Notes: a model not told the origin generated them from the sequence alone. DNA of 29,097 nt from a virus (IMGVR_UViG_3300020551_000015:1-29097); one strand, 5' to 3'. Shown: positions 5,532 through 28,243, numbered from the stretch's first letter. Numbers and translations: made by a program.

Positions 5532-5879
5532 ATGAAACAAATCACACACACAATCGGAGGCAAAGAGGTTACATTGGATGTCGGTAAGATGTGGTTCTCA
5601 AAGTTCTACGGAGAGGCTACATCTTCTGACCCTCTGTTAATGTCTGAGCTTCTAAGTAAGCCTGACAAACAATTTGATTTTATTTGTGGCCTCGTTTATG
5701 GTGGGTTGAACTGCTATAACAAGGTCAACGGCATTAAGGAGTTTATCTCTATTGAGCAGGTCCAAGATTGGGTCGGTGCAATGGATGAGACCGATGCCGC
5801 TAGTCTTATCAATAAGTTTGTAGAGGCTAATAAACCTAAAGACCAGGGGGAAGCCCCAGCCCAAGTGGCAAATCCTTAA
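5532..5879 (+). CDS. Tail assembly chaperone (lambda gpG equivalent)
   Basis: Lies between tube and tape measure genes; ends with a GGGGGAA slippery site. Confidence 0.8.
   Translation: MKQITHTIGGKEVTLDVGKMWFSKFYGEATSSDPLLMSELLSKPDKQFDFICGLVYGGLNCYNKVNGIKEFISIEQVQDWVGAMDETDAASLINKFVEANKPKDQGEAPAQVANP
5846..5852 (+). promoter_or_regulatory. Programmed -1 ribosomal frameshift slippery site (G GGG GAA)
   Basis: Read in frame as CAG GGG GAA. The -1 frame opens right after a TAA at 5837-5839 and runs without stops into the 5891-6199 ORF (GSPSPSGKSLTWDEMRSEAFG...). Confidence 0.8.
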
Positions 5880-5890
5880 CTTGGGATGAG

Positions 5891-6199
5891 ATGAGGTCGG
5901 AAGCCTTTGGCCAGATTGGTCTGCTTCCGGTGGAGTTTTACGGTCTAGAGGTCGATGAGTACCTTTTGCTAAGAAAGGGTTATATCGAAAAGGTAAAGAC
6001 AGAGTCTATCCTATTGAGGTTTCAGACAGCCTTAATATGCGAGGCTCTGATAGGTAAAGGGAATGGGGCTAGGTTTGTCATGGATAGCTGGCAGCTTGAA
6101 TCTAAGACAGATTTAGATCAAGAGCAAATCAGGGCACTACTAAAGGCCAAGAAAGAAAGAGAGGCTTTACGAAGGCTAAAAACGAAGCAGAATGGCTGA
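5891..6199 (+). CDS. Tail assembly chaperone T-region (expressed as a G-T fusion, 5532-6199)
   Basis: In the -1 frame relative to the upstream chaperone; GLLP.EFY.L...EY motif typical of gpT regions; precedes the tape measure. Confidence 0.75.
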   Translation: MRSEAFGQIGLLPVEFYGLEVDEYLLLRKGYIEKVKTESILLRFQTALICEALIGKGNGARFVMDSWQLESKTDLDQEQIRALLKAKKEREALRRLKTKQNG

Positions 6200-7886
6200 G
6201 ATGCAAATAAAGATAGCGGCTGATGTCAGTAGTGCGGTTAGCGGCTTAGATAAACTAAGCAAAGAACTAGACCAGACTGGCAAAGATGCTGTCCAATTAG
6301 GCAATGCAGTCGAAAGTGCAGGGGCTAAGATTAGGACCTTGCCTAATGTTACAGGGCAAGCCACATCGACCTTAACGAACTTTAGCCGAGTGGTGCAAGA
6401 TGCGCCATTTGGCCTTATTGGTATAGCCAATAACATTGACCCTTTAATTAGCTCATTTAATCAGCTTAAAGCTACTACTGGAACTACCGGAGGGGCTTTT
6501 AAGGCTTTAGTGGGTCAGTTGGCTGGTCCTGCTGGTATTGCCTTAGCCGTTTCTACCGTTACATCTTTACTGATTACATTTGGGGATAGGTTATTTAGCT
6601 CTAGTCAATCTGCAAAGCAATTGGCCGAGCAAAGCAAGAAAGTAGCCGATGAGCAAAGAGCTATATTTGAGGGCATAGCTAGAGAAAGGGTAGAGATTGA
6701 TAAATTAATCATTGCCCTAAATTCAGAGAACACAACAAGAGGCCAAAAAGAGGGAATACTTAAAAAGCTCAGAGCTATTAACCCTCAGTATTTTGGTGAT
6801 CTCAAAAACGAGGAAAATCTAGTTAATGCGCTTAGTTTAGCCTATCAAAAATATACGGCTAGCTTGGTAGCAAGGTCCGAGGTCGCTATCTTGACCAAAG
6901 AGCTTGAGGACATTACTACTGAAATTCTAAAGCTAGAGAAAGCTGGTGCTACTACTCAGGTTATTGACTTAGGCCTTAAAAGAGGCTTAGATGGCAGAAT
7001 ACAAGCTGCTAGGTTATTAACCAAAGAGGAACGCACACAACTTGACTTAAATACTCAGCTATCCGCACAATTAAGAGAAAGGGATAGAATCTTATCTCAA
7101 ATTGTAACTAAGCAAGTAGGCATTGAGTTGCCTACCCCTACTGGTGGAACTGCTGATGTCAAATTTGATTTCAATTTAATACCTGGTATTAGCAATCTTA
7201 GCGAATTTGAGGCTAAGTTAGCTGGTCCTTTAGGTGGTTTATTGCCAGATTTACAAAAGGCGATAAAGAATATACAGACAGACCCTAAAGATGTAAAAAT
7301 ACCCATCAAGCCTAATTTGGTGGCTACTGGTGCGGATCAGGCTGTTTTGGAGTTTGCTAGTAACTTATCGCAAGCTTTGCAAAATGCTTTACAGCAAGGT
7401 TTAGAGGGTATCGGTGAAAGTTTGGGCAATCTTTTATCGGGTGAGAACTTTGGTGAGGGTATATTAAATGTAATTAGTTCCTTGCTAAGTGCAATAGGTA
7501 AGGCTTTGATAGCTTATGGTATTGCAAAGGATGGAATCGACAAGATATTGGGTGCTGGTGGTATTTTGATACCCGGTACAGCCGCCATCGGATTGGGTAT
7601 TGCAACGATAGCTGCCTCGCAATTATTAAAGAATTTTGGAGGCGCAAGGGCAGAGGGTGGACCAGTCAGCGGCAATAAAACATACTTAGTGGGTGAAAGG
7701 GGCCCAGAGTTGTTTGTGCCCAATGTCGCTGGCACTATTGTACCTAATGATGAACTGCCTAGCTTTGGTCAAGGATTGGCCTCTATGTTAGGCGGTAGGT
7801 CAGGCGGTGGAACAACATTAAGAGGACAAGATATTATTTTGGCTTATGCCAGAACACAAAGGAGTCAATTAAGAGTCAATGGCTAA
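6192..7886 (+). CDS. Tail tape measure protein (short, 564 aa)
   Basis: Long helical Ala/Gly/Leu-rich protein; VVQDAPFG..GIANNI motif; C-terminal RAEGGPV...YLVGERGPELFVP motif. Confidence 0.92.
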   Translation: MAEMQIKIAADVSSAVSGLDKLSKELDQTGKDAVQLGNAVESAGAKIRTLPNVTGQATSTLTNFSRVVQDAPFGLIGIANNIDPLISSFNQLKATTGTTGGAFKALVGQLAGPAGIALAVSTVTSLLITFGDRLFSSSQSAKQLAEQSKKVADEQRAIFEGIARERVEIDKLIIALNSENTTRGQKEGILKKLRAINPQYFGDLKNEENLVNALSLAYQKYTASLVARSEVAILTKELEDITTEILKLEKAGATTQVIDLGLKRGLDGRIQAARLLTKEERTQLDLNTQLSAQLRERDRILSQIVTKQVGIELPTPTGGTADVKFDFNLIPGISNLSEFEAKLAGPLGGLLPDLQKAIKNIQTDPKDVKIPIKPNLVATGADQAVLEFASNLSQALQNALQQGLEGIGESLGNLLSGENFGEGILNVISSLLSAIGKALIAYGIAKDGIDKILGAGGILIPGTAAIGLGIATIAASQLLKNFGGARAEGGPVSGNKTYLVGERGPELFVPNVAGTIVPNDELPSFGQGLASMLGGRSGGGTTLRGQDIILAYARTQRSQLRVNG

Positions 7887-10233
7887 TTTTTATTTAGGTA
7901 GTTTTGTCAATACGCAAGTAGATTATTCGGACAATAGTGCGAATGAGCAGACTATCTTTATCAAGATTACAAATACTGCCGAGGATGATGAGACAGAGGT
8001 ACAGCTAGAGACAGCCGATGCCCCTGTGGTATTTCAGACCGTTGACAACTCAGAGGATAAATTTACCGTCATTAAGAGTAAGAGCTGCAGACTAAGGGTT
8101 TTTACTAATGATGATGTCAATGCCATGACCTTTGCTGGTGGTGGCGATAATCAATATAAAGTAGAGATTGCGGTCGGTACAGACACAGAGATAGTGTTTA
8201 CTGGCTGGCTTTCTATTTCGGACTTGGGGCAGACCTTTCAGCCTGACCCCAATGTCTTAGAGCTAATAGCCACAGATGGCATAGCTTTTTTAAGAGATTT
8301 ACCTTTAACAGATAACGAGGGAAGATACTTAACTGGTCCGCATCCGTTGATAAAATATATTAGCTGGTGCTTAGAAAAGACTGGGCTGCAATTGCCTATC
8401 TGGGTGGAAATGAATCTACTTGAGGTCTTAGCTACATACGATGCGCCTGCTGACCATTTTTACAATATGCTTTACCTAAATGCTCAGACTTTTGAAACGA
8501 GCATAGGAGAGCTTGAGAACTGCTATTCAGTACTTGAAAAGATACTTAAAGAGTTTTGCGATATCAGCCAGCAAAAGAATGTCTGGTTTATCCGTTCTAC
8601 CGATGAGGCTGGTTATGCGATAAAGAGGGTATGTAAGTTCGACTATACAGGCGAGCCTATTGCCTTTGATGCGCCACTTTTGGTCAAAGATATTGGAGCT
8701 GAGTATGACATGGCCTTTATGAACGATGATGCCAGGTTAAGCCTGCAAAGGCCCTACAAAGCGGTTAAGCATACGTTTGACTATAACTATCCAGCCGAGA
8801 TAGTCCAAAACATAGATTTTGAGAGAGGTGAGGAGGTTGAAGCTCCCGATCCTACTGCCCCAACCTCTACCGGGGTTTATAGACCAGAGGGATGGGTATT
8901 AGCAAGAGCTGGGGATGGCACAGGTGGGGTCTGGTTGGACCTTTATCAACAAGCAGGAGCCAGAGGGGAGCTGATTAAGGAGTTTGAGTATGGCTACGAA
9001 AAGGAGAGATATTTTGTAGTCGAGCATGAGGATGTAACTGGTACTGACTTTATTCACTACCTAAAAAGTACACCTTTTTATGTTCAAAAAGGGGATAGAC
9101 TGCAAATCTCTGTCGATGTTGGTCAAGATGTCAATATAAACACAATCAACCCAGTCCATGTTTGGCTTGAGGCCGATACTAATTACTATACATGGCAATA
9201 TGATAACACAAACCCATCGGCAATCGTTAACCAATGGGTAAGCAAGCCCAAGCCGTTAACAGCTGCAATATCAAGCAATCCTTTTACAGAAATGTGGAGG
9301 ACTAATCTTGATAGTGCTTTAGACCCAACTGATGAGCTGCCTAAGTACACAAACATGACCTCAGAGTTAGAGGTGCCAGCGGATGGCCGAATCTGGGTTC
9401 GTTTGGCAGTAAACTTTAACATATTTGCCCCTATTTACTTTAACAATTTAAGCATAAACCTAACCCCTCGGGTAAATGGCTCTTATGCTAAATATAAAGG
9501 GCAGCAGCATATCTCCGAGCAGCAAGTAGATAACATGGCTGTCAGGGATGAGACGGTGTTTATGTCGGATGCTCCCAGAATCGAAATGAAAGGGGCTTTG
9601 CTTTTGACAGAGTTAGGGGAAACCTTGTATTCTGGCAATGCAGTCTTTGCGGCTGGCAATGGGGTTAATTTAGATGGCTTTTATACCCCATACTTTAACA
9701 TCAACGACTATATTGAGGTAAGCAATACTAGCTTAAATAATGGCAAGTATCGAATCGTAGCGGTAGAGTACTCGCTTATCCCTAATAAGACCATCTTAAC
9801 CTTTGCCGAGCCAACAGTAAGTGAAACTGATGCTTCGACAACTATTAAGGGCTTTAATTATTTGCTATCTGGCAACTTTTACGACTCAATAGAGTTTCAA
9901 GGTAGCCCTCCCCAAGAGGACCAGTTACCTTATGGCCAACATCAGAACCAAGCGGTCTGGAATCAATACAATCGAGTCTTTACAGCCTTTGAGGCTACTG
10001 TGGATGGATTAGACACCGACAAGACTTATGATGGTGAACCAGATTTGCCAGATTTACTACATTTGTATAGGCAAAAAGATGCGCACCCAGCTACCACAAA
10101 CAAAGGTTTTAAGCTGCTACATTACGAGCAAGATACCGATAACTGCGAATGGGGTCTTTATATGATTGAGGTGGTAGATTCTACCATCCCTAAGTCTTAT
10201 GATGGTCATTCGTTCAAATATATACAAGAATGA
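7879..10233 (+). CDS. Tail tip / baseplate hub structural protein
   Basis: 784 aa, acidic, beta-rich and aromatic-rich, directly after the tape measure; no signal peptide. Confidence 0.65.
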   Translation: MANFYLGSFVNTQVDYSDNSANEQTIFIKITNTAEDDETEVQLETADAPVVFQTVDNSEDKFTVIKSKSCRLRVFTNDDVNAMTFAGGGDNQYKVEIAVGTDTEIVFTGWLSISDLGQTFQPDPNVLELIATDGIAFLRDLPLTDNEGRYLTGPHPLIKYISWCLEKTGLQLPIWVEMNLLEVLATYDAPADHFYNMLYLNAQTFETSIGELENCYSVLEKILKEFCDISQQKNVWFIRSTDEAGYAIKRVCKFDYTGEPIAFDAPLLVKDIGAEYDMAFMNDDARLSLQRPYKAVKHTFDYNYPAEIVQNIDFERGEEVEAPDPTAPTSTGVYRPEGWVLARAGDGTGGVWLDLYQQAGARGELIKEFEYGYEKERYFVVEHEDVTGTDFIHYLKSTPFYVQKGDRLQISVDVGQDVNINTINPVHVWLEADTNYYTWQYDNTNPSAIVNQWVSKPKPLTAAISSNPFTEMWRTNLDSALDPTDELPKYTNMTSELEVPADGRIWVRLAVNFNIFAPIYFNNLSINLTPRVNGSYAKYKGQQHISEQQVDNMAVRDETVFMSDAPRIEMKGALLLTELGETLYSGNAVFAAGNGVNLDGFYTPYFNINDYIEVSNTSLNNGKYRIVAVEYSLIPNKTILTFAEPTVSETDASTTIKGFNYLLSGNFYDSIEFQGSPPQEDQLPYGQHQNQAVWNQYNRVFTAFEATVDGLDTDKTYDGEPDLPDLLHLYRQKDAHPATTNKGFKLLHYEQDTDNCEWGLYMIEVVDSTIPKSYDGHSFKYIQE

Positions 10234-10925
10234 ACGATGGTAAAGTAGTAAGGGGGTCCAGCATGATAGCCTCGATAAAGGTTAACGATGCCTATTATCC
10301 TGTCTTTTGTGCTAAGTCTTGCTCGTTTGAAATGAGCAATGAGATTATAAACAGGACCTCTGTCAATGATGGTTTATTCCCTAAAAGGAGGGTTAGGAGG
10401 ACTGAATGGTCCGGCTCTGCCTCTGGGGTCATGGTTACTAATAACGACTCGAACCGATATAGCCCATTTTACTTTTTACAAGATTCTGTTAGAACAAGTG
10501 TTTTGGATTGGCAGTTTGAGTTTACCAATCTTGATGGCGAAATAAAAACTATTGAGGGTCAAGCATTAATACAAAACTTGCCAATAACTGGTGATGTGCA
10601 GTCATTTGTACAGACAACGATAAATATCATCGGGACCGGTGCTTTCACAGTAGATGCAAGCCCATCTGTTACAGATGTGGACTCAGATTACTGGACTACG
10701 GTAGCTGGTCAAAATTATGTCAACGGATTGTCGGTTACTGGCAAAACAATGGTAGGTAAAACGATTTTGGCTATTGCTAGAGAGGGTCTTATTTACGATC
10801 CTATCACTACTGGCACACCTACTAATCGTGAGGCATTGTTTGATAGTGCTTTAGGCAAGATAACCTTTGATGCAAATATACCTTTTAATCCGGGCGAGAC
10901 TGTCTGGGCTATGTGGAAAAACTAA
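10230..10925 (+). CDS. Second tail-tube-like protein with a C-terminal accessory domain
   Basis: N-terminal ~140 aa (CAKSCSFEM..E.I..T....W.GSASG...G.ALI..L.I.G......T.NI.GTG) looks like a tail tube fold; the C-terminal ~80 aa is paralogous to the next ORF. Confidence 0.6.
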   Translation: MNDGKVVRGSSMIASIKVNDAYYPVFCAKSCSFEMSNEIINRTSVNDGLFPKRRVRRTEWSGSASGVMVTNNDSNRYSPFYFLQDSVRTSVLDWQFEFTNLDGEIKTIEGQALIQNLPITGDVQSFVQTTINIIGTGAFTVDASPSVTDVDSDYWTTVAGQNYVNGLSVTGKTMVGKTILAIAREGLIYDPITTGTPTNREALFDSALGKITFDANIPFNPGETVWAMWKN

Positions 10926-11176
10926 TGATTACTAAAAAGTCATATACCCCAACGGCTGGCACGCATATCATTACTGATAGCTCATTAGTAAATATCAAAA
11001 TGCTAATGGTAGCCAGAGAGGGCAATACTTATGACATTATCCGATCTAACAATGATATCCAACTAGATTACAGAGAAGTTAGATATTCGGCTGCCAATGG
11101 TGAGCTGGTTTTTGATGTAAATATCCCATTTAACCCTAACGAAATAATCAATATAGTCTATGATACGATTCCTTAG
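10925..11176 (+). CDS. Small tail-associated protein, paralogue of the upstream gene's C-terminal domain
   Basis: TAATG stop/start overlap at 10923-10927; shares AREG..YD.I...RE....A.G...FD.NIPFNP.E with 10230-10925. Confidence 0.7.
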   Translation: MITKKSYTPTAGTHIITDSSLVNIKMLMVAREGNTYDIIRSNNDIQLDYREVRYSAANGELVFDVNIPFNPNEIINIVYDTIP

Positions 11177-14100
11177 TCTTATTTTACTTATGACATTAAG
11201 CATTGTAGCAAATGCTCAGGCTCCTAGTAACTATACAAATATCAATGGCCGCTACCGCTGGATAGCTGGTATGTTTGATTCGACCTTTCATATCCCAAAG
11301 GGTACAACCCCAAGTCTAAGAACAGGTGGCTCTACCAATCCGGGGGCTATCTTTTACAATACTACCGATTCAAGTGTTTATACTTATACTGGTACGCAAT
11401 GGATAAAGCTGAGAGGTAGTATAAACCCATCAGATACCACAAATAAATATGTAACCCAAGTCTATAAAAAGACTGGGTCCGATTCTATATTTTATGTCAA
11501 AGGTGGTTCACACATTTTTGCCTTTATTGATTCGGTAGGGTCAGGAGGCGGTGGTGGAGGCGGTGGTGGTAAAATCTACTACTTCAATGGTGGGGTGTCA
11601 ATGGGTACTTTTGGCGGCTTTACTATGTATGAGCTAGGAGATACTGCTGTAACAAGTACCGCTGCTAACTTTACACGATCTACAAATGGCAATATAGCAA
11701 ACTTTATTACAGACCCCGGTAAGCCAGGTTTATTGAGTATCCCTGCTGGTGTTTGGACTATTGATGCCTATCTTAGTGAAACAGGCGGAGGTTCTAATAA
11801 TGCCGAGATATATGTTCAAGTAGAAAAGTGGGATGGCTCTACAATAACAACGATAGCCACATCTCCTATTGAGCAAATTACTAATGGAAATGTCATTGAT
11901 CTATACACTTGGTCAGTTTCTATTCCTACGACAAGTCTGGCAATTACTGACCGTATTATCATACAATTTTACATCCAAAATACAAATGGTAAGACCGTTA
12001 CTTTATACACTCAGAATGGATTAGTTGGTGAGGTGCATACAACCTTTACTACTGGTATCGGTGCTTTGAATGGCCTTACGGCTGCATCCCAGTTTTTTGC
12101 CACAGGCACATCTGGTACGGACTTTAACATAGCATCAGCAACAGCCACTCATACTTTCAATCTTCCTACCGCCTCAGCTACTAATAGAGGTGCTTTAAGC
12201 TCGGCTGATTGGACCGCCTTTAATAACAAAGGGTCTGTTAGTTCAGTAGCCACAAATAATGCCACAGGCATAACTGGGGGAACAATTACTACAACCGGAA
12301 CCCTAGCCATTGATACTACTGTTATCTCTACTCGTTTGTGGAGGCAAAAAGGTATCGATTCGGTGCAGTCTAATCTGACAGCGGGTTTGGCCTTAAAGGT
12401 CAATATCTCAGATACAGCATCAATGCTTTTACCTTATTTGCGTAAAGCAGATACAACGGCTATGCTCAGTCCTTATTTGAGGGCTATTGATACGGCATCA
12501 CTGAGCAATAGAATAAATCTCAAAGTCAATATTAGCGACACAGCAAGCATGCTCAGCCCGTATCTTAGAAAGGTTGACACAGCTTCCCTCAGCAATAGAA
12601 TAAATACCAAGCTTAATATATCCGATACAGCCACAATGCTCGGCAACTATCTCAACAATGTAGGCTATGGACTGACAAAAGCCAGTCAAGTCGTATCGGC
12701 TGACTCAGCGACCTTATCCGCTTATTATTTGCGTAGAAAGGACTCGTTGACCTCTACTAATTTACTTGGCTATGTAACCAGAACGGTCCTAGCTGACTCA
12801 GCTGCTGCTATTAGAGCTGGTTCAGGTACTATTAGTGGTTCTGGAACAACAAACAGAATATCTAAATTTACCGCCTCTGGAACTATTGGAAATTCATCTA
12901 TTGCGGATTCTAGCAGTTCGGTTGCAATGACTATTTTAAGTAACGGCAATATTGGCATCAATAGAACTGCCCCAAGCGAGCGATTGGAAATAGTCGGAAC
13001 TTCTCGCTTTACCAGAACAACATCCCCAAGTGTGCATCTTAATATTAGTATGGAAAATGGATTTGCTGAATATGATGCGAGAGGGTCAATAGATCACGTA
13101 TGGGAAAATAGCGGAGTCGAAAGAATGAGATTGACTCTTGGTGGCAATTTAGGTATTGGAACCGCATCTCCAGACTCAATGTTAACGGTATTAGAGGGGG
13201 CTAGATTCCAAAGAGGTGTTAGGATGTCAGGACTTCCCTCAGCACCCGGCACAAGAGCTTTGAGAATAGATGCCAATGGTACTTTATCAGTCGCTGATAC
13301 TACCACAGGTGGAGGAGGTATCTCAGGCTCAGGCACTACAAACTACATACCTAAGTTTACAAGTTCAAGTGCAATAGGAAATAGTAATTTACAAACTGAT
13401 GCATCGGGAAATGTTGGTTTAGGAGTAACACCGAGTGCATGGGGAAGCAATTACAAAGTTTTAGAAAGTGGTAATGGCTCAAATGGAGTAGGTGGCGCAT
13501 TAGCATTTTTTAATACTGGAACGAATGGGGCTATTTTGTATTCAAATGCTTATAATAATAATACAAATGATATTTATTCATATACTGCCCCAGCTGCTAA
13601 ATTTGCTATAGAAAATAATCTTTATAAATGGTTTCAGGCTGCACAAGGAACCGCTGGCAATAATATCACATTTACTCAGGCAATGACTTTAGATGCTTCG
13701 GGAAATCTAAATGTAGGAACAACTACCAGCGCAAGTAAAGTAAACGTATCAAATAAATTAAGATTATGGGATACTACACCAACTGGCGCAGGTGGGTCTA
13801 ACGTAATGGGTTATATGTTTAATACCTCTAGTGTACCAGCTGGAACATTTATTGAGGATGTTGGCACTGGTATAATTTTAAGTATGGGTGTTAATTCAGT
13901 ACAAAGTGGTTCAAGGACTACATCGGTAGTTGGTGGACTTTTTAGAATGGATACACGTTCTACGCAACAAGAATTTACAGTAATAGGAGTTCCGACAGGT
14001 GGTTCAACAGAAAGTCAAAGATTAGGAGTAAATCTACAAAATGGTAACACTATATTAGCACCGGTTGCGGGTAATGTTGGTGTTGGAATTTCGGCTTATG

Positions 14101-15104
14101 CTACAATGGGTAGCAAACTTCAAGTCAACGGTAACGCAGCTATCGGCTACTCAGCCTCTACTGCTGCTCCAACAAATGGATTAGCGGTAAGTGGTGATAT
14201 GGGTATTGGAACTGCTTCCCCAAGCAAATATAATCATGGTGGTACAAATAGATTTTTAGAAATATACAATACTGCGACGTCGGCAGATGCTCAAGCGCAT
14301 TTATTATTATCGACAGGAGCAAGTGCAAATACTGGCTCAATAGGTTCTGTTACTTTTGCTTTACCAAATACGGCTGGAGCAGAAAAACGAGGTGCTATCA
14401 TTCAAGGTTTAATCGATGCCAATAGTTCAACAAGTGCCAATGTTAGATTAGAGTTCCTTACTGCAAATGCTGGCTCTTTAGATACAAGAATGTTAATCAC
14501 ACCAGCTGGAAATATATTTATAGGAAATGGAACTGTCGCAGCTTCCCCAGCAACCGCAATAATCTCAGGCACAGGAGGTACAGGTACAAACGTAGCAGGA
14601 GCAGAATTTAGAATAAGAGGGGGTGCTTCTACGGGTAGTGGTGCTGGAGGACCAATTACTTTTTATACTGCCGCAGCAGGAGCAAGTGGTACAACTGTAA
14701 GAGCCGCAACAGAGGTGGGTAGATTTACAAGTGCTGGAGATTTTGGTATTGGCACAACTACTCCCAATAGTAAATTGCACGTTGCTGGTTCTGTACGACT
14801 TCCCATAACAACCAAAACCACTACTTATACTTTAGATGCTACGGATTACACAGTAGTATTTAACCTTAATGGAAACGCAACGGCAAATCTGCCTGATGCT
14901 ACAACTATTCCTGGTCGTATTTATGTAATTAAAATCAATAGAACCAATGTCGGTGATACGTTAACAATTGACCCTAATGGCGCACAAACAATCGATGGTG
15001 CAGCTACTTTAGCGATACAATGTCAATATGCAGTTACTATACAAAGTGATGGAACTAACTGGCGAATAATTGGTGATTACGCACAAGGGATAAATTGTCT
15101 TTAA
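11160..15104 (+). CDS. Long tail fibre / adhesin-like protein with an N-terminal Sec signal peptide
   Basis: 1314 aa Gly/Thr/Ser-rich; repeated G.VGIGT..P...L.V.G fibre shaft motifs; N-terminus MIRFLSLILLMTLSIVANA/QAP; occupies the fibre position in the tail module. Confidence 0.8.
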   Translation: MIRFLSLILLMTLSIVANAQAPSNYTNINGRYRWIAGMFDSTFHIPKGTTPSLRTGGSTNPGAIFYNTTDSSVYTYTGTQWIKLRGSINPSDTTNKYVTQVYKKTGSDSIFYVKGGSHIFAFIDSVGSGGGGGGGGGKIYYFNGGVSMGTFGGFTMYELGDTAVTSTAANFTRSTNGNIANFITDPGKPGLLSIPAGVWTIDAYLSETGGGSNNAEIYVQVEKWDGSTITTIATSPIEQITNGNVIDLYTWSVSIPTTSLAITDRIIIQFYIQNTNGKTVTLYTQNGLVGEVHTTFTTGIGALNGLTAASQFFATGTSGTDFNIASATATHTFNLPTASATNRGALSSADWTAFNNKGSVSSVATNNATGITGGTITTTGTLAIDTTVISTRLWRQKGIDSVQSNLTAGLALKVNISDTASMLLPYLRKADTTAMLSPYLRAIDTASLSNRINLKVNISDTASMLSPYLRKVDTASLSNRINTKLNISDTATMLGNYLNNVGYGLTKASQVVSADSATLSAYYLRRKDSLTSTNLLGYVTRTVLADSAAAIRAGSGTISGSGTTNRISKFTASGTIGNSSIADSSSSVAMTILSNGNIGINRTAPSERLEIVGTSRFTRTTSPSVHLNISMENGFAEYDARGSIDHVWENSGVERMRLTLGGNLGIGTASPDSMLTVLEGARFQRGVRMSGLPSAPGTRALRIDANGTLSVADTTTGGGGISGSGTTNYIPKFTSSSAIGNSNLQTDASGNVGLGVTPSAWGSNYKVLESGNGSNGVGGALAFFNTGTNGAILYSNAYNNNTNDIYSYTAPAAKFAIENNLYKWFQAAQGTAGNNITFTQAMTLDASGNLNVGTTTSASKVNVSNKLRLWDTTPTGAGGSNVMGYMFNTSSVPAGTFIEDVGTGIILSMGVNSVQSGSRTTSVVGGLFRMDTRSTQQEFTVIGVPTGGSTESQRLGVNLQNGNTILAPVAGNVGVGISAYATMGSKLQVNGNAAIGYSASTAAPTNGLAVSGDMGIGTASPSKYNHGGTNRFLEIYNTATSADAQAHLLLSTGASANTGSIGSVTFALPNTAGAEKRGAIIQGLIDANSSTSANVRLEFLTANAGSLDTRMLITPAGNIFIGNGTVAASPATAIISGTGGTGTNVAGAEFRIRGGASTGSGAGGPITFYTAAAGASGTTVRAATEVGRFTSAGDFGIGTTTPNSKLHVAGSVRLPITTKTTTYTLDATDYTVVFNLNGNATANLPDATTIPGRIYVIKINRTNVGDTLTIDPNGAQTIDGAATLAIQCQYAVTIQSDGTNWRIIGDYAQGINCL
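12396..12653 (+). repeat. Protein-level tandem repeats in the fibre (KVNISDTASMLSPYLRK / DTASLSNRIN)
   Basis: Three (V/L)NISDTA(S/T)ML units plus ADTTAMLSPYLR, interspersed with two DTASLSNRIN units; the copies differ at synonymous codon positions. Confidence 0.85.
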
Positions 15105-15121
15105 TATAAAATAATATAAAA

Positions 15122-15520
15122 ATGAAACAAATCTTAACTATTTTTGTACTGCTTTGCTCTTTGTCAATCTCTGCTCAAGGTACTTTAAGTTCAACCGCTG
15201 GCACTATCAGCCCTACACAGCCCGATACCATTGTGGTCGTAAATGATGCCTTGCAAGTAGAGCCAGTTCTTATTAATGCCTTAACAAAAGACACTTGCTA
15301 TCAGATTATCTGGAATGTGCAAAATGTAACCAGAGATACTACGCAAGGATCGCCTTGTTATGTTAGTATGTTTGACAGAGGGGCTCGTAACTTTGGGCAA
15401 GTGTATTGTTACATCCCTAAAGAGGTTATTAATGCATGGGGAACTAGTAATACCATTATCGATGACTATGTTTTGGCCTACTTTGGTTTTCGAAGACGTG
15501 GAACTTCTAAATCTAAATAA
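15122..15520 (+). CDS. Secreted hypothetical protein after the fibre (possible fibre chaperone or tip)
   Basis: Signal peptide MKQILTIFVLLCSLSISA/QG; A-rich translation start region. Confidence 0.7.
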   Translation: MKQILTIFVLLCSLSISAQGTLSSTAGTISPTQPDTIVVVNDALQVEPVLINALTKDTCYQIIWNVQNVTRDTTQGSPCYVSMFDRGARNFGQVYCYIPKEVINAWGTSNTIIDDYVLAYFGFRRRGTSKSK

Positions 15521-15522
15521 AC

Positions 15523-15726
15523 ATGAAAAAACTACTGATTATCGCAGCCATTGGTCTTTTGTCTTTTACAACGCAAGAGCCTAAGACCGTAACATTAACC
15601 TTAACCGTAGAGGAGGTAAACCTTATCTACATGGGTCTTGGTGAGCTACCAGCTAAAGCAAGTGAGCAGCTTAGATACAAAATAGCCCAAGAGGCACAAA
15701 AACAACTGAACACAGAAAAAAAGTAA
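15523..15726 (+). CDS. Small helical protein with signal peptide (fibre-associated)
   Basis: MKKLLIIAAIGLLSF N-terminus; mature part LTLTVEEVNLI..GLGELP.K.....KI..EAQ resembles small ORFs that often follow phage fibre genes. Confidence 0.65.
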   Translation: MKKLLIIAAIGLLSFTTQEPKTVTLTLTVEEVNLIYMGLGELPAKASEQLRYKIAQEAQKQLNTEKK

Positions 15727-15729
15727 ACG

Positions 15730-15948
15730 ATGACACAGAGTTGGATGATATTTATTTTAGGCCAAGCCGCCACCTATGCAGTAGCCTTGATTAAGATTTG
15801 GAATGATAGCCAGGTAAAAATGGCCCGCATGGATGAGCGACTAAAGGTAGCAGAGGATAAGGATGAGACCTTATTTAAGAAACTCGACCACATATCTGTT
15901 CAACTGACTGAGTTGTCTATTCAATTATCAAATAAACAAGACAAATGA
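15730..15948 (+). CDS. Membrane-anchored coiled-coil protein (holin/antiholin or XhlA-like)
   Basis: One N-terminal hydrophobic segment plus a coiled coil; at the start of the lysis cassette. Confidence 0.55.
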   Translation: MTQSWMIFILGQAATYAVALIKIWNDSQVKMARMDERLKVAEDKDETLFKKLDHISVQLTELSIQLSNKQDK

Positions 15949-16169
15949 GTAACTTTCTGAATCTTGACTTACAAGACCTTACTAAGGGTTTTGTGGTAGC
16001 CTTTTTAAGTGCTACCTTGACTGGCATCGTGGCTATTTTAGAGACTAGCCAACTGCCTCAGTTATCGGATATCAAAGCCGCTGCCATCGTTGGTTTAACC
16101 GCTGGTCTGTCCTATTTGTTAAAGAATGTCCTGACTAATAGCCAAGGACAAATGCTAAAAAAAGACTGA
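15945..16169 (+). CDS. Putative holin
   Basis: 74 aa, two hydrophobic helices, charged C-terminus; upstream of spanin and endolysin. Confidence 0.7.
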   Translation: MSNFLNLDLQDLTKGFVVAFLSATLTGIVAILETSQLPQLSDIKAAAIVGLTAGLSYLLKNVLTNSQGQMLKKD

Positions 16170-16663
16170 TGCGTGTTTTTGTGTTGGCTGGGTTATTGCT
16201 CATCGGTTGCAATCCGGGTAAGCAACTATCTAAAGCAGAGGCAAGGCTGGCTCAGGCTGGCCGCCTCCCAGCTATTTGCGCTGAGAGATACCCGGTTAAA
16301 GACACGACCTACATTAAAGACACTTTGGTCCAGATAGACACCTTTCTGTCTGGGGAGTACATCTTTGACACAGCCCGAATCAATGATACCTTATACGAGG
16401 TTAAGTATAAACCCGTAGTCGTATATAAGACAAAATACATAACTAAAGTAGAAAGGGTTGAGGATGTAGCCAAGATAGAGGCTTTGAGGGCATCTGTAAG
16501 CCAATTAGAGGCTAATAGAGCCGCTTTATCGGTTCAGCTAGCAGAATATAAGGACAAGGCTGGAACCCGACTAAATTGGCTTATTTTGGTCTTATGCGCA
16601 GTCTTTGGGTTTGCTATTCGTAAGCCAGTCATGGCATTAATCAAATTCCACTTAAAATGGTAA
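16169..16663 (+). CDS. Putative unimolecular spanin (lipoprotein with C-terminal TM helix)
   Basis: Lipobox LLIG-C at Cys14, periplasmic beta plus coiled-coil region, C-terminal TM (WLILVLCAVFGFAI); adjacent to the endolysin. Confidence 0.7.
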   Translation: MRVFVLAGLLLIGCNPGKQLSKAEARLAQAGRLPAICAERYPVKDTTYIKDTLVQIDTFLSGEYIFDTARINDTLYEVKYKPVVVYKTKYITKVERVEDVAKIEALRASVSQLEANRAALSVQLAEYKDKAGTRLNWLILVLCAVFGFAIRKPVMALIKFHLKW

Positions 16664-17076
16664 CCTCTGCCCAAGCCTTAAAAAAGTACGGACAGCCCGA
16701 TCCGGCCAATCCCCACATGGTTTTGTGGGATGTTCCAGCACATTTAGAGATAGGGGTTATCCCTAAAAGGGTATATTGTAATAAAGACCTTGTCGGTCCT
16801 TTAGAGGCCGCTTTTAAGGCTTTGATAGATACTGGTCATGTAAGCGAGTTAAAGACCTGGGATGGCTGCTTTAATATCCGTAAGAAAAGAGGTCTAAGTT
16901 CTATGAGCCTGCATTCATGGGGGATAGCCATTGATGTCAATGCCTTTGAGAATGGCCTTGGCAAAGAGCCTAAGCTAAGTGCTGATTTTGTCAAGTGTTT
17001 TACTGATAATGGCTTTGACTGGGGTGGTGTTTGGACCCGAAAAGATGGTATGCACTTTCAATTATCAAAAATTTAA
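16657..17076 (+). CDS. Endolysin, peptidase M15 family
   Basis: FN.R, S.HSWGIAIDVN, WGG.W and D.MHFQ Zn-peptidase motifs. Confidence 0.92.
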   Translation: MVTSAQALKKYGQPDPANPHMVLWDVPAHLEIGVIPKRVYCNKDLVGPLEAAFKALIDTGHVSELKTWDGCFNIRKKRGLSSMSLHSWGIAIDVNAFENGLGKEPKLSADFVKCFTDNGFDWGGVWTRKDGMHFQLSKI

Positions 17077-20152: not shown

Positions 20153-20565
20153 TTTATTTTGCCTAAATGGTCGACAAATAAGATATCTGAGTAAGACCGG
20201 ACCCTTGTCATCCGCATAGATATCTCCAAATCACTTGCTAAGTCTATGACTTTCAAATAATAAGGAAAAAATTTAGGGTCTTCAGTTTCAATGTAACTTT
20301 CTATTCTAGACCTATAAGTACTCATGGTAGAATGATCCTTATATCCTACTAATGGGGCTATCTCGGTTAGCTTCATAGGACAATGGCGATAGATAAAGTA
20401 CGATAAAGCCATTCTAATCTCAGCTATTCTAACAACATTGCCATCTTGATCTTTGCATATCTTAAAGTGATTACGGCCTCTTAGACTTTGCAGTTGCTGT
20501 AAGGTTATGCCGTAAAAATCACATGCTGCCTGGACTAGTTGAATCGCTTGCTCTCTGGTGTTCAT
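20140..20565 (-). CDS. DnaA C-terminal (domain IV)-like HTH protein
   Basis: ACDFYGIT..QL.S..R...IAEIRM.L.Y......L.EIA..VGYKDHST matches the DnaA domain IV pattern (RDHTT equivalent). Confidence 0.8.
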   Translation of the reverse strand: MNTREQAIQLVQAACDFYGITLQQLQSLRGRNHFKICKDQDGNVVRIAEIRMALSYFIYRHCPMKLTEIAPLVGYKDHSTMSTYRSRIESYIETEDPKFFPYYLKVIDLASDLEISMRMTRVRSYSDILFVDHLGKINLAV

Positions 20566-21706
20566 AAAGTTCTATGGTTTTGAATATTTGATAAACTACT
20601 TGGGGAACTATTGCGTTTCCTCCAGCTTTGATTGATTCGTTTCTCCATTTAGAAAAGGTAATAGAGTCCAATCTGTCGGAAAGCCCATCATCTCCATTAC
20701 AAATTGGGGAGACAGTTGGGAAGTTTTGCCATTGGTTTCTGCGTTCCACATTGCTATATCCATTTGTCTTTTGCCTATTCTGTTGTTCCAATATTTTTCG
20801 CTGTGTCCGTGTTTGACTATTTGTGCAGTTGGTGTTGGCAACAAAATCCCTCCTTTGTATTTCGCTAATGTTGTTAAGGTCACATCCCCTCCGTTTTCCA
20901 CCTTGTCCACTATTGTTTTCATGTTCCTCCTTTCTATTGATTCGCAAGCTCTTGGTGTTGGCAACATCCCCATTGCCATTGCCCTTGTTAATGTTACTGA
21001 GTGCATTGAACCCTCCTTGACTTGGCTTGATTTCATTGTTGCTGTCGCATTGGTTGAATCCATCGCTGTTGGAGTTAATAAAAGATTGGCCTTTGCTATG
21101 TCGTTTAGACTGGGGCCAAATCTCATCCCATCCTTTGGTCGTATGTTCACAAAACTTCCGTTGATTAGTTTCAATTCCTTCCCGCTGTTGACATTCTCTG
21201 CCATTCCATCCATTGCTTTTGGAGTGGGCAACAAACCATATTCGGTCTCTTCTGTGGGGAGCGTTGACGGATACAGCTGGCAATACATACGGCCATACTT
21301 CGTACCCTTGAGCTTCCAAGTCAGTTTGCACTTCGTGGAATACCAGCCCTCCATTCCAATTAACAAGCCCGAGAACATTCTCGCCAATGACCCATCTGGG
21401 CTTAACTTCTCTAATGACTCTAAGCATTTCTGGCCAGAGGTGGCGGTCATCCTCTTTGCCAAGTCGCTTTCCTGCCATTGAGTATGGTTGGCATGGGAAT
21501 CCTCCGGTGAGAACATCAATTTGGTTTGCATACTTAGTAAAATCTGATTTTGTTATGTCAGTAAATAGTTCTGATTCGGGCCAATAGTATTTGAGGACCT
21601 TTTGACCAAATTGGTTCCATTCGCAATGAAACTTATTCTCCCAGCCCATCCACTCAGCGGCAAGGTCAAAGCCCCCAATCCCACTAAATAATGATCCATG
21701 TGTCAT
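20519..21706 (-). CDS. DNA (cytosine-5) methyltransferase, large (alpha) polypeptide
   Basis: Motif I SLFSGIGG, IV GGFPCQ, VI ENV, VIII HRRDRIWFVA and X GNAIVPQV; the low-complexity middle region is overprinted by a second ORF. Confidence 0.92.
   Translation of the reverse strand: MTHGSLFSGIGGFDLAAEWMGWENKFHCEWNQFGQKVLKYYWPESELFTDITKSDFTKYANQIDVLTGGFPCQPYSMAGKRLGKEDDRHLWPEMLRVIREVKPRWVIGENVLGLVNWNGGLVFHEVQTDLEAQGYEVWPYVLPAVSVNAPHRRDRIWFVAHSKSNGWNGRECQQREGIETNQRKFCEHTTKGWDEIWPQSKRHSKGQSFINSNSDGFNQCDSNNEIKPSQGGFNALSNINKGNGNGDVANTKSLRINRKEEHENNSGQGGKRRGCDLNNISEIQRRDFVANTNCTNSQTRTQRKILEQQNRQKTNGYSNVERRNQWQNFPTVSPICNGDDGLSDRLDSITFSKWRNESIKAGGNAIVPQVVYQIFKTIELYEHQRASDSTSPGSM
20608..21531 (-). CDS. 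Overprinted C5-MTase small (beta) polypeptide in an alternative frame
   Basis: 307-aa ORF nested on the same strand; four L(L/M)(P/L)TP repeats and a C-terminal QLSPQFVMEMMGFPTDWT (motif IX-like). Confidence 0.8.
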   Translation of the reverse strand: MQTKLMFSPEDSHANHTQWQESDLAKRMTATSGQKCLESLEKLSPDGSLARMFSGLLIGMEGWYSTKCKLTWKLKGTKYGRMYCQLYPSTLPTEETEYGLLPTPKAMDGMAENVNSGKELKLINGSFVNIRPKDGMRFGPSLNDIAKANLLLTPTAMDSTNATATMKSSQVKEGSMHSVTLTRAMAMGMLPTPRACESIERRNMKTIVDKVENGGDVTLTTLAKYKGGILLPTPTAQIVKHGHSEKYWNNRIGKRQMDIAMWNAETNGKTSQLSPQFVMEMMGFPTDWTLLPFLNGETNQSKLEETQ

Positions 21707-25386: not shown

Positions 25387-25617
25387 ATGGAAAAGCAGAA
25401 ACGAGGTCGTAAGCCAAAGCCTGCACATCTAAAGGTGCGAATGGTATCAGCTTACCTAACATTAGAGCAGATTCAATTGATTAACAACGAGTTCGGAAAC
25501 TTGACAAATGCAGTAAAGTATCACATTTTAAGCAAATTCAATGGATATCGTGATAGCTTTGGGAACTGGCAGCCGGTGGATGGACAACGAGCTGAGGTAT
25601 GCCCTAAGGTCGATTGA
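25387..25617 (+). CDS. Small basic DNA-binding regulator (AT-hook / ribbon-helix-helix-like)
   Basis: KRGRKPKP followed by a beta-helix-helix pattern; first gene after the divergent promoter. Confidence 0.55.
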   Translation: MEKQKRGRKPKPAHLKVRMVSAYLTLEQIQLINNEFGNLTNAVKYHILSKFNGYRDSFGNWQPVDGQRAEVCPKVD

Positions 25618-26230
25618 CAAGCACCTAAAAGGCCACACTGGTCGCATTTTATTAATAGGTCAAAGACCTAAATGGGTAAAAAATGTCGATCACTACCCCA
25701 TCCCAGATGTGCCAGGGCGCAAGAATTTCAGCATCTTTCAAAAGATACTGACTGGGTGCGAGATGACAAATACTCCCGATTTTATCTTTTGGAATGATGA
25801 CCACTTTCTAATTAAAGACCTAAGAGTAGACCAGTTTAAGTATTGGTATGATGGTCTGTGCAGCCAATGGGCTGAAAAAGCGACTGGATTGTATCAAAGG
25901 GCTATCACAAATACTGCCAAGCTACCCGGATGTAATGACCTTTATACCGATATTCATGTGCCTATCGTTTACAATGCGACCGAGTTTGGTAAGCTCTTAA
26001 AGCTAGACTGGAGACAAGAGTATGTCATTAAATCGGCTTATACTAGAAACATGGAGGGCGGCTTTGAATACATGGCTGACTTTAAGTTGAGCAATCAGTA
26101 CAATCTAAGCACTTGGCAAGGTAAGTTAGTGGGCAAGACCTTTTTCTCAATAGGGTCTTATACTATAAACAACGATTTTAAGATATTAATGCAAGACCTT
26201 TACCCAGATAAGTCAATCTACGAAAAATGA
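25541..26230 (+). CDS. Stealth-family-like sugar-1-phosphate transferase
   Basis: MDIV (CR1-like), ELRYALRSIDKH...I.LIGQRPKWV and FIFWNDDHF (CR2), plus a HVP motif. Confidence 0.7.
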   Translation: MDIVIALGTGSRWMDNELRYALRSIDKHLKGHTGRILLIGQRPKWVKNVDHYPIPDVPGRKNFSIFQKILTGCEMTNTPDFIFWNDDHFLIKDLRVDQFKYWYDGLCSQWAEKATGLYQRAITNTAKLPGCNDLYTDIHVPIVYNATEFGKLLKLDWRQEYVIKSAYTRNMEGGFEYMADFKLSNQYNLSTWQGKLVGKTFFSIGSYTINNDFKILMQDLYPDKSIYEK

Positions 26231-27198
26231 GAATCTTTATACAAAGCCCGAACATTAACTCTCGGCATGGTGGCATAAGGGTCATTAACGAATGGGCAAA
26301 TAGATTGCAGGCTTTTGGGCATAAGGTTATCTTATACAACCAAGCTGGACCAGTTAGATGCGATTGGATGACCATAACTTGCAAGATTGTCAATACTACT
26401 AGTTTATTGGACAAATCAGACCTTTTGATAATAACCAGCCCGCATGGGGCTTTTTTATTGGCTAAAGATAAGCCAGCCAAAAAGGTGGTTTTTTTGCAAA
26501 TGTTGGAGCATCTGTTTAACATAACCAACAAATCATTTTTTGATAGTTGCTTAGCTTTATACACTACTAAATACCCTTTGATATCCATAAGCCAGTGGAA
26601 TATCAAGTTTTTACAAAATAAATACCAAAGAAAGGGCCCGATACACTATGTAGGCAATGGGGTAAATCTAGATGACTTCTCTATTAGCAATAAACCAAAA
26701 GAGGGCAAAATAGCTTTACTAGAATCGCCAGAGCCTACTAACATGGCTAAAGACACCGAAAAGATAGCCGTACAAGTAGCCAAAAACCTAATAGAAAAGG
26801 GCTGGACAATTAAAGGTTTTGGATTACAGGCAGCCAAAGACAATATCTATACAGAATACTTTACTAAGCCGAGCCTAGAAATTATGAATCGTTTATATGA
26901 TGAGGCAACCATCATGATTAAGGCTACCAAGTATGATGCAAGATCAACAGCCCCTTTAGAAGCTGGCACAAAGGGTACGGTAACGATTCGGGGCATTATT
27001 GAGGGGGATGATGACCTAAATGATAGCAATTCTTTTAAGACTGGCTACTCTTATGACAAGTTATTTGATGCCACCATGTTTGCAATAAATAACCCAGAGC
27101 AATTAAAGCAACGGTCTGAGAATATTAAAGCCCATGTGCAGACTTATACTTGGGATTATTGGATGGCTATAATCAATCAAATCTTATGCAGCTTATAG
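26227..27198 (+). CDS. Glycosyltransferase, GT-B / GT4-like
   Basis: HGGIRVI.EWANRL...GH.V, ISISQW, VGNGV and PLEA motifs, ending in YTWD. Confidence 0.85.
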   Translation: MRIFIQSPNINSRHGGIRVINEWANRLQAFGHKVILYNQAGPVRCDWMTITCKIVNTTSLLDKSDLLIITSPHGAFLLAKDKPAKKVVFLQMLEHLFNITNKSFFDSCLALYTTKYPLISISQWNIKFLQNKYQRKGPIHYVGNGVNLDDFSISNKPKEGKIALLESPEPTNMAKDTEKIAVQVAKNLIEKGWTIKGFGLQAAKDNIYTEYFTKPSLEIMNRLYDEATIMIKATKYDARSTAPLEAGTKGTVTIRGIIEGDDDLNDSNSFKTGYSYDKLFDATMFAINNPEQLKQRSENIKAHVQTYTWDYWMAIINQILCSL

Positions 27199-27626
27199 TT
27201 GGATGCGGTCCTAATTGGGCCAAAAGAGAGAATGACATTTTTTTAGATGTAAGACCATTTGACAATGTCGATGTGGTTCACGACCTTAATATAACCCCTT
27301 GGCCTTTCAAAGATAACAGCATGATAGAGATATCTGCTATTCATGTGGTGGAGCATCTTAATAGCTTACTAGACTTTATGAATGAAAGCCATAGAATACT
27401 ACAAAAGGGGGGGGCTTTATACATAGAAACCCCAGAAGCAGGGGCAAACCCAGACTTGCAGTTTGCTGACCCTACTCATGTAAGATGCTATCGGAAGCAC
27501 ACTTTCATAAACTATTTTACCCTATCTGAGGCTCATAAGTTTGGCTACACTGATAAGCTCTGGGCTATCATGCACATAGAAACTAAAGATGGAAACCTTA
27601 TTGTCCACTTAACACCCCTAAAATGA
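27186..27626 (+). CDS. Class I SAM-dependent methyltransferase
   Basis: VGCG, D.VHDLN..PWPF.DNS, HVVEHL, E.HRIL..GG.L.I.TP and DPTH motifs; ATG at 27186. Confidence 0.88.
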   Translation: MQLIVGCGPNWAKRENDIFLDVRPFDNVDVVHDLNITPWPFKDNSMIEISAIHVVEHLNSLLDFMNESHRILQKGGALYIETPEAGANPDLQFADPTHVRCYRKHTFINYFTLSEAHKFGYTDKLWAIMHIETKDGNLIVHLTPLK

Positions 27627-28237
27627 GAATCTTAATCGTTGCCTTAGAATACTTAGAGCCAGAATGGCTAGAGACCCTAAAGTGTATTGAGGAAACTGGG
27701 TTACCTTATGAGATAGTCAGCCGGGATGGGGTAGGAAATATGTCAAGGGCTTACAATACTATTATAACCAAAAACAAAGAGGCGGATTACTATTGGTTTG
27801 TTTCAAATGTAACCTTTAAGCCTCAGATGCCTTATGAGTTAGCAATGGCTTGCGAGACATTAGGCTGGGCTGGCATCCATCCGGCTATGCCTACCTCTGA
27901 TCATAGATTCCAATGGCCTAACGGACACGAACCCAAAGAGACCCCTTTTATCGAATGGACTGCCCCGATGATTAATGCAGAGGCCTTTAACTTAAACCCC
28001 TTAGACGAAATGCTGCCTTATTATTACATGGACCTTGACTGGTGTCATCGGGTCAAGCCTAAAAGGGTGGGGGTGCTTCATAGCCAAGTCATCGGGCATA
28101 CTTATTTAAGGAATAAAAAAGAGCATCCCATCGGTCAGCTCAGAAAGCAGCTCAGAAACTACTGGACCCCAATCAGTCAAAGACACATGCTGCAAAAATG
28201 GGGTAAAAACTGGCAACAAGATTTATGGCCTAAATAA
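27623..28237 (+). CDS. Glycosyltransferase, GT-A / GT2-like (divergent)
   Basis: SRAYN, LDE.L.YYYMDLDWC.R, H and KWG C-terminal GT2 motifs; the canonical DXD is not obvious. Confidence 0.65.
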   Translation: MRILIVALEYLEPEWLETLKCIEETGLPYEIVSRDGVGNMSRAYNTIITKNKEADYYWFVSNVTFKPQMPYELAMACETLGWAGIHPAMPTSDHRFQWPNGHEPKETPFIEWTAPMINAEAFNLNPLDEMLPYYYMDLDWCHRVKPKRVGVLHSQVIGHTYLRNKKEHPIGQLRKQLRNYWTPISQRHMLQKWGKNWQQDLWPK

Positions 28238-28243
28238 AACAAA

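Follow-up and report, generated by a model that had tools for sequence, protein, structure and literature searches.

The viral DNA analysed in the current work, IMGVR_UViG_3300020551_000015:1-29097 (one strand of 29,097 nucleotides, hereafter referred to as the window), carries a tail-fibre module of three consecutive genes, which encode a fibre of 1314 aa and two partners of 132 and 67 aa, and the products of all three genes are predicted to begin with a signal peptide of the general secretory (Sec) pathway. Assembly of tailed phages is considered to be completed inside the cytoplasm before the cell lyses. The reading favoured here, and considered probable, is that the fibres are exported by Sec and join tails built in the cytoplasm at lysis. 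The three N-termini had been quoted in an earlier note made from this sequence alone, and they match exactly those of the corresponding open reading frames (ORFs; coordinates in Table 1).

Predicted signal peptides of the fibre-module genes

Signal peptides were called with a home-made heuristic, which requires a lysine or arginine within the first six residues, an uncharged window of eight residues with a mean hydropathy of at least 2, and a small residue at position -1. Four of the 46 window genes were flagged in this way, namely those of the fibre, the 132-aa protein and the 67-aa protein, and the lipobox-containing spanin gene at 16169. None of the 15 upstream head, neck and tail genes was flagged, which agrees with the statement of the earlier note that the upstream virion proteins are leaderless, including the gene it designated 10925. 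When applied to cultured phages, the heuristic gave two false positives among 52 other virion proteins annotated by tandem mass spectrometry (MS/MS; see below).

Cleavage is predicted after residue 19 of the fibre and after residue 18 of the 132-aa protein, in both cases with Gln at position +1. These two proteins display the features of Bacteroidota substrates of signal peptidase I (SPI), being a basic n-region, a hydrophobic h-region, small residues at -3 and -1, and the +1 Gln which, as stated in a passage of PMC5837995, characterizes SPI substrates in this phylum (the Q-rule). The leader of the 67-aa protein, with predicted cleavage after residue 14 (LLS/F), is the least typical of the three, having neither a clean Ala-x-Ala/Gln site nor a clean +1 Gln. 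The fibre ATG, which overlaps the upstream gene, is the first start following an in-frame stop, and the sole internal Met near the fibre start, Met38, is replaced by Lys in four relatives.

Two queries were used to retrieve related loci, the fibre N-terminus and the two upstream tail genes, the second of which does not depend on the leader; both yielded largely the same contigs. The 74 fibre ORFs recovered represent 30 distinct N-termini, each of which consists of a leader followed by Gln (30/30). Among these 30, 21 different leaders are found, position -1 is occupied by Gly in 17 and by Ala in 13, and position +1 is always Gln. Mean column identity is 0.70 within the leader versus 0.97 over the next 40 residues (26 QAP-type sequences), with the jump located at the Gln. 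Considering that every distinct related fibre N-terminus carries a leader, the leaders are not due to chance, and the conservation across homologous fibres that the earlier note had proposed to examine is thus borne out.

A profile of the 67 mature N-terminal residues, from which the leader had been excluded, matched 566 proteins, the best 150 of which were inspected. The domain is N-terminal in 119 of these 150, and 108 of the 119 are flagged, 100 of them with a +1 Gln. By inspection, the 11 unflagged proteins comprise five that begin at an internal Met, two that begin within the leader, one with a longer leader, one ambiguous case and two truly leaderless homologues (P0178 and P0193). The leaders of the partner genes are kept to a similar extent: 118 of 120 listed homologues of the 132-aa protein are flagged (110 with a +1 Gln), as are 86 of 90 listed homologues of the 67-aa protein, the latter being leader-bearing in every locus of this clade that was displayed.

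Bias in an O-glycosylation motif

According to part of PMC8729774, the motif D-[ST]-[AILVMT] directs O-glycosylation in Bacteroidota and is used only on exported proteins. Its occurrence was compared with that in shuffled sequences; as the relatives are kin, the family totals given here are not independent counts. The fibre contains 20 motifs versus 5.1 in shuffles, and when its repeat block (Table 1) is left out the count is 9 versus 4.0 (p 0.011). Control motifs are not enriched in the fibre (E-[ST]-x, 0 versus 2.4; N-[ST]-x, 5 versus 11; [ST]-D-x, 5 versus 5.0). The spanin has 4 motifs versus 0.3, with 4 also present in both complete relatives, and the 132-aa protein 2 versus 0.5 (p 0.09). 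No enrichment was found in the other 20 window genes tested, among them that of the leaderless hub (3 versus 2.9).

The same pattern is seen among relatives, for which 233 motifs versus 83 were counted in fibres (n=19) and 276 versus 54 in homologues of the second gene (n=120), as compared to 131 versus 131 in hubs (n=41) and 2 versus 3.8 in leaderless partners of the DUF7936 family (n=9). A motif at residue 40 is present in 96 of 107 N-terminal domains; in the two truly leaderless homologues this motif is lost, and their total is 1 versus 5.2. The fibre is likely to be O-glycosylated at these D-S/T motifs. Export of the fibre and its partners to the periplasm, which the earlier note had put forward together with maturation there, is well supported by inference from the conserved leader, the Q-rule and a motif bias that is confined to leader-bearing proteins and lost in leaderless homologues. 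It does not extend to all partners across the clade: in 19 distinct cases, the slot of the second gene is occupied by the leader-bearing 132-aa family in 13 and by a leaderless DUF7936 protein in five, and is empty in one.

Leader-bearing virion proteins of cultured Cellulophaga phages

As evidence on virion membership, 65 MS/MS-noted virion proteins of six Cellulophaga phages were scored with the heuristic, using whole records for four phages and parts of the records of phi10:1 and phi18:3. The MS/MS evidence consists of notes in the GenBank records, which are without peptide positions; according to part of a later paper, MS/MS was performed on purified particles (PMC11946311). Fifteen proteins were flagged, 13 of which have credible leaders (12 with a +1 Gln), being gp25-26 of phi39:1, gp101-104 of phi19:1, gp91-94 of phi10:1 and gp85-87 of phi18:3. 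All 13 lie in the fibre/spike slot, between the tail-tip and lysis genes, and the order in phi10:1 is that of the window, i.e. tape measure, hub, second tube-like protein, small protein and leader-bearing genes. In addition, the window N-domain profile matches phi19:1 gp101 (2.7e-6 among 26 proteins; 32 residues). No MS/MS note is attached to four putative spanin-like exported proteins of the Cellulophaga phages, a finding that speaks against bulk contamination with envelope material. Phages phi18:1 and phi46:1 and Flavobacterium phage 11b were considered as further cases and rejected, their fibre genes being leaderless; phi18:1 infects the same host species as the four leader-bearing Cellulophaga phages.

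The 15 flagged Cellulophaga proteins are depleted in the glycosylation motif (16 versus 40), the other 50 not (67 versus 75.5). Since these proteins avoid the motif, glycosylation is not the universal purpose of export. Avoidance could also result from selection by a periplasmic enzyme, and such selection is implied by enrichment in the clade of the window together with depletion in Cellulophaga phages.

Near-identical leader-bearing virion proteins were observed across Cellulophaga phages of different families (L099:5017-11154, L100:13848-20879 and L111:2892-8584). Thus, phi19:1 gp102 and phi10:1 gp93 are 97% identical and phi18:3 gp86 has the same N-terminus, which suggests a mobile exported-fibre cassette. 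The families of phi19:1 gp102 and phi39:1 gp26 are filed in PHROG under 'moron/AMG pectate lyase'.

Identity and architecture of the fibre

The gene set constitutes a tail-fibre module, carried by a long-tailed phage of the Bacteroidota. Residues 1-100 of the fibre are common to 18 of 18 full-length relatives, and sequence beyond residue 600 is shared with at most one of the 18; a fixed N-terminus combined with mosaic tips is the usual layout of receptor-binding proteins. The middle part of the fibre matches the PHROG tail-fibre families 9942 (1e-10, residues 560-946) and 18345, the fibres of relatives match PHROG tail-fibre families down to 3e-46, and the full ORF sets of two complete relatives contain no other fibre-like gene. 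An S74-type chaperone end occurs in two of the 18 full-length relatives (with a Pfam Peptidase_S74 match for L037). The whole 1314-aa fibre has no Pfam or NCBIfam match, and sequence searches of the PDB with the fibre, the fibre tip and DUF7936 returned nothing significant. The only two Cys residues (1288 and 1313) are within the tip domain, and no tandem array was found in the DNA beneath the protein repeat. Fibres of siphophages are normally leaderless and fold in the cytoplasm, whereas the present one has, by the heuristic, a conserved SPI-type leader.

A structural model of the N-domain (predicted local distance difference test score of 82) weakly resembles the N-terminus of Mtd, tailspike N-domains and collagen trimerisation domains. 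Its best fold match is weak (Z 3.2, root-mean-square deviation 2.5, 40 aligned residues), and the fold search gave no hit at E<=0.001. The domain is predicted to be a trimerisation and tail-anchor module. For docking, a candidate site or collar is possibly provided by the 231-aa second tube-like protein and the 83-aa protein encoded next to it, the latter gene being paralogous to the former's C-terminal domain (the 83-aa profile matches the 231-aa protein at 5e-12). Prediction of a complex between three N-domains and the 83-aa tail protein scored 0.00, which counts neither way.

Families belonging to type IX secretion systems (T9SS) or to autotransporters gave no Pfam or NCBIfam match in the fibre of the window or in those of seven relatives, and fibre C-termini are not conserved. 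A lipobox was not found on the fibre, nor was an outer-membrane anchor detected. Scanning of the plus strand from 10066 to 11160 for the promoter TAnnTTTG gave no match, and a scan for sigma-70 promoters and terminators remained at chance level.

Proposed assembly route and alternative explanations

In the route proposed here, the fibre and its two partners would be exported by Sec through host-style leaders, after which SPI would remove the leader and the exposed Gln would be cyclised to an N-terminal pyroglutamate. In this clade, the fibre would be O-glycosylated in the periplasm, where it would remain, considering that no T9SS or barrel domain was detected, and trimerise, perhaps assisted in this by the 67-aa protein exported along with it. 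Docking of the conserved N-domain onto the leaderless tail-tip proteins would take place after the compartments have been mixed by the action of holin, endolysin and spanin, either through holin lesions before the burst or in the lysate. From export onward this scheme is what we infer, and SPI cleavage, Gln cyclisation and D-S/T glycosylation are taken from established Bacteroidota biology. Late docking has a precedent in T4, where fibres attach in vitro to fibre-less particles.

A number of observations weigh against this route. Evidence of virion membership is by analogy, because for no window protein was a close cultured homologue found, and the match to phi19:1 gp101 spans only a 32-residue motif at the C-terminal end of the N-domain. 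The 13 cultured proteins are partly homologous (as with gp93 and gp102) and therefore not independent, phi10:1 gp95 bears a leader and is without an MS/MS note, and the fibre genes of phi18:1, phi46:1 and 11b have no leader, in 11b within the same gene order. Not every partner is co-exported, given that a leaderless DUF7936 protein follows a leader-bearing fibre in five of 19 cases. Concerning the motif, 11 of the 20 occurrences in the fibre sit in one repeat block, the kinship of the relatives limits the family totals, and the fibre of relative L003 is not enriched (4 versus 3.4). The fibre also need not be the sole receptor binder, as the hub may carry a carbohydrate-binding insert of its own.

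That the leaders are artefacts, arising from wrong start calls or from chance hydrophobic N-termini, is extremely improbable: they were called by a home-made heuristic only, with its two false positives, and five database representatives begin at an internal Met, but the placement of the fibre ATG, the retention of a leader in all 30 distinct relatives and the lack of conservation of the internal Met all speak against this explanation. It is very unlikely that the leader acts as an uncleaved membrane anchor or that fibres ride envelope vesicles, with tails being finished on the inner membrane or particles leaving with membrane. Tailed-phage assembly does have membrane-associated steps, and the 67-aa leader is without a textbook cleavage site; however, the leaders of the fibre and the 132-aa protein have short h-regions and strict small-residue/Gln sites, and with an uncleaved anchor the body of the fibre would face the periplasm and be separated from the tail. 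A further explanation, judged quite improbable, supposes a dual fate through leaky export or late jamming of Sec, in which virion copies would be cytoplasmic, with their leader intact or cut by a phage protease, and the leader itself would be a remnant dating from the capture of secreted proteins of the host. The existence of leaderless homologues, from which it follows that the folds of the N-domain and the 67-aa protein work without export, speaks for such a fate, as does the coexistence of leader-bearing fibres with leaderless DUF7936 partners. Nevertheless, three separate genes keep leaders across divergent sequences, with SPI-type residues at -3 and -1 and a +1 Gln; leaderless phage homologues exist for the 67-aa family, so that its leader appears to have been gained and not to derive from a host enzyme; in four relatives, Lys is found in place of Met38; and the opposite motif biases of the two groups of phages imply selection by a periplasmic enzyme.

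The remaining alternative accepts export and supposes that the proteins are not attached to tails, being instead soluble depolymerases, decoys or receptor blockers that escape at lysis or are retained in the envelope, while the hub alone binds the host. The hub indeed has look-alikes with carbohydrate-binding modules in the Atlas (leads only), proteins that co-purify with particles are detectable by MS/MS, and parts of two papers describe comparable proteins in other roles, namely the signal-peptide-bearing, S74-ending MAT fibres of Bdellovibrio, which are cell-surface adhesins (PMC10769870), and phage genes obeying the Q-rule, which were read as envelope modifiers (Matrishin 2023, PMC10367356). 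This alternative is nonetheless considered unlikely: the fibre has no lipobox, no T9SS or autotransporter match and no conserved C-terminus; its start overlaps a tail gene, with no TAnnTTTG promoter in the preceding interval; and 13 such proteins are MS/MS-noted in Cellulophaga phages, whereas the four spanin-like proteins are not. The earlier note had left two fates, attachment to the virion and display on the infected cell. Attachment is favoured, and display less so, since leader-bearing proteins that occupy this slot in cultured Cellulophaga phages carry an MS/MS annotation as virion proteins, a tyrosine integrase was found in none of five near-complete relatives, and neither an outer-membrane anchor nor a T9SS signal was detected.

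Partner genes, lysis genes and genome context

Table 1 Features of the tail-fibre region of the window
Feature	Position	Strand	Remarks
Hub / Tal-like protein	7879..10233	+	Leaderless; no motif enrichment
Second tube-like protein (231 aa) and 83-aa protein	10230..11176	+	Both leaderless
Fibre / receptor-binding protein, 1314 aa	11160..15104	+	Mosaic body and tip; 20 D-[ST]-[AILVMT] motifs
Predicted Sec/SPI signal peptide of fibre	11160..11216	+	19 aa, ending Ala-Asn-Ala; start codon overlaps end of 83-aa tail gene
Conserved mature N-terminal domain of fibre	11217..11417	+	Gln20 to about residue 86; D-S-T motif near-invariant at residue 40
Protein repeat block of fibre	12297..12809	+	Residues 380-550; 11 of 20 glycosylation motifs
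132-aa fibre-partner	15122..15520	+	SPI leader, +1 Gln19; predicted four-strand sheet and two helices
67-aa fibre-partner	15523..15726	+	LLS/FTTQ-type leader; leaderless homologues in tail-fibre regions of other phages
Lysis genes	15730..17076	+	Two small membrane proteins (putative, holin-like), spanin-like lipoprotein, M15 endolysin
Spanin-like lipoprotein	16169..16663	+	Lipobox, C-terminal membrane segment; resembles one-piece spanin

A model of a member of the 132-aa family matches uncharacterised phage proteins of 79-111 aa, while against the PDB no Foldseek hit was obtained at E<=0.001 (best Z 3.8). Assignment of the 132-aa protein to DUF7936 (PF25590), which had been expected, was not supported, as there is no Pfam match and two profile comparisons with hhalign gave probabilities of 0.4% and 0.3%. 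A tblastn search for leaderless homologues of this family in cultured phages returned only noise. Leaderless homologues of the 67-aa protein were found at E 3e-18 to 2e-9: in L102, L108 and L109 they come after a PHROG tail fibre and DUF7936, and in L104, L105 and L107 they are surrounded by other genes of the tail region. Because leaderless homologues follow ordinary tail fibres elsewhere, the third gene belongs to the fibre module and not to the lysis genes located directly downstream; by sequence comparison, a module that is leaderless in other phages bears separate leaders here. In one relative, an 81-aa leader-bearing gene of different sequence, with an LMSF-type leader end alike, takes the place of the 67-aa gene (L033:11573-11818). 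Two relatives with a DUF7936 partner carry a putative lysozyme-like endolysin (L013:6021-6452 and L038:13382-13813) where others have an M15 peptidase.

The window represents most of the genome of a small long-tailed phage of freshwater type, in the order HK97-type head genes, neck, tube, tape measure, hub, second tube-like protein, 83-aa protein, fibre module, lysis genes and metallophosphoesterase. Completeness is 96-100% for five close relatives, whose lengths are 30.6-34.3 kb; two of them have terminal repeats (32.3 and 31.4 kb), and the genes of relative G003 that are missing from the window are mainly those of terminase and portal. CheckV puts the completeness of the window (1-29097) at 45%, which looks too low with relatives complete at 31-34 kb. 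The best cultured matches of the capsid are Cellulophaga phage phi10:1 (35%, 2e-50) and Flavobacterium phage 11b, on account of which the host is presumably a member of the Bacteroidota. The host is placed at phylum level only, since scans of GTDB with the fibre N-terminus and with the capsid revealed no close prophage.

A cluster at 25541-28864 (+) encodes a Stealth-like protein, two putative glycosyltransferase-like ORFs without a family match and two methyltransferases; it is retained immediately before the terminase in both complete relatives and could decorate the capsid or the host surface. At 20519-21706 (-), a putative cytosine-methylase-like ORF of 395 aa overlaps a 307-aa ORF (20608-21531) on the same strand in another frame, neither of which is among the ORFs of the two complete relatives. 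Two adjoining small genes at 5532-6199 (+), between tube and tape measure, occupy the position of a frameshifted tail-assembly chaperone pair.

Comparison with known systems

The closest systems are those of the Cellulophaga baltica phages phi10:1, phi19:1, phi39:1 and phi18:3, which share with the window a slot after the tail tip and before the lysis genes that is filled with consecutive SPI-type leaders; phi10:1 further shares capsid homology and gene order, and phi19:1 gp101 part of the N-domain. Their leader-bearing proteins differ from the window fibre in being shorter, in some cases containing pectate-lyase domains, and in being motif-depleted instead of enriched. The modules of the aquatic phages L102, L108 and L109 have the same three-gene order (a fibre, often with an S74 end, DUF7936 and a small helical protein) with a homologous third gene, and they share PHROG fibre families with the clade of the window, in which DUF7936 fills the second slot in some relatives; unlike in the window, all three genes are leaderless.

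Outside tailed phages, the MAT fibres of Bdellovibrio bacteriovorus, as described in part of Caulton 2024 (PMC10769870), have a signal peptide, a conserved N-domain and a mosaic trimeric fibre with S74 or other tips, as does the window fibre in its predicted form; they are, however, chromosomally encoded adhesins of the predator surface with a beta-rich domain of ~130 aa that is conserved, and not virion parts, whereas the gene of the window fibre belongs to the tail operon of a phage and the fibre has a conserved domain of about 67 aa. The g3p protein of filamentous phage M13 (PMC8310372) is, as predicted here for the window fibre, a receptor-binding virion protein with a cleavable Sec leader, but it is membrane-anchored and added during extrusion without lysis, in a non-tailed phage. 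The window fibre thus resembles MAT fibres and g3p in its predicted use of Sec, membership in neither group being shown. Bacteroidota phage genes with SPI leaders and a +1 Gln are also known from prophages of Porphyromonas gingivalis; in the relevant part of Matrishin 2023 (PMC10367356) these are five in number, of unknown function, may modify the outer membrane and are not tied to tail fibres or virion assembly. The structure paper on crAss001 was rejected as a precedent: in the passages covered the word 'signal' does not occur, and gp22 docks by residues 1-26.

Implications

Full-text literature searches, in a library with few subscription papers, returned no paper describing signal peptides on tailed-phage fibres and none remarking on the leaders of Cellulophaga virion proteins. 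A Sec route for a tailed-phage fibre would, if it holds, be new, all of its parts (fibre, leader, Q-rule and motif) being known. The route is directly testable in the cultured phages phi10:1, phi19:1, phi39:1 and phi18:3, and it also bears on annotation, in which leader-bearing fibre genes get filed as morons or auxiliary enzymes.

We advance more tentatively, as somewhat short of an even chance, the wider proposal that a widespread group of Bacteroidota tailed phages builds two-compartment virions: heads and tails would form in the cytoplasm, and the fibres would fold in the periplasm, be capped there with pyroglutamate and coated with host O-glycans by enzymes of the host, and meet the tails only at lysis. 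A Sec-routed fibre would in itself add a cross-membrane step to virion assembly and would tie infectivity to the lysis pathway, and the glycosylation system of the host could modify the virion. If the wider proposal is true, the O-glycan on the host-recognition fibre of each particle would be that of the host it last grew in, and this non-genetic marking could alter adsorption, host range or stability.

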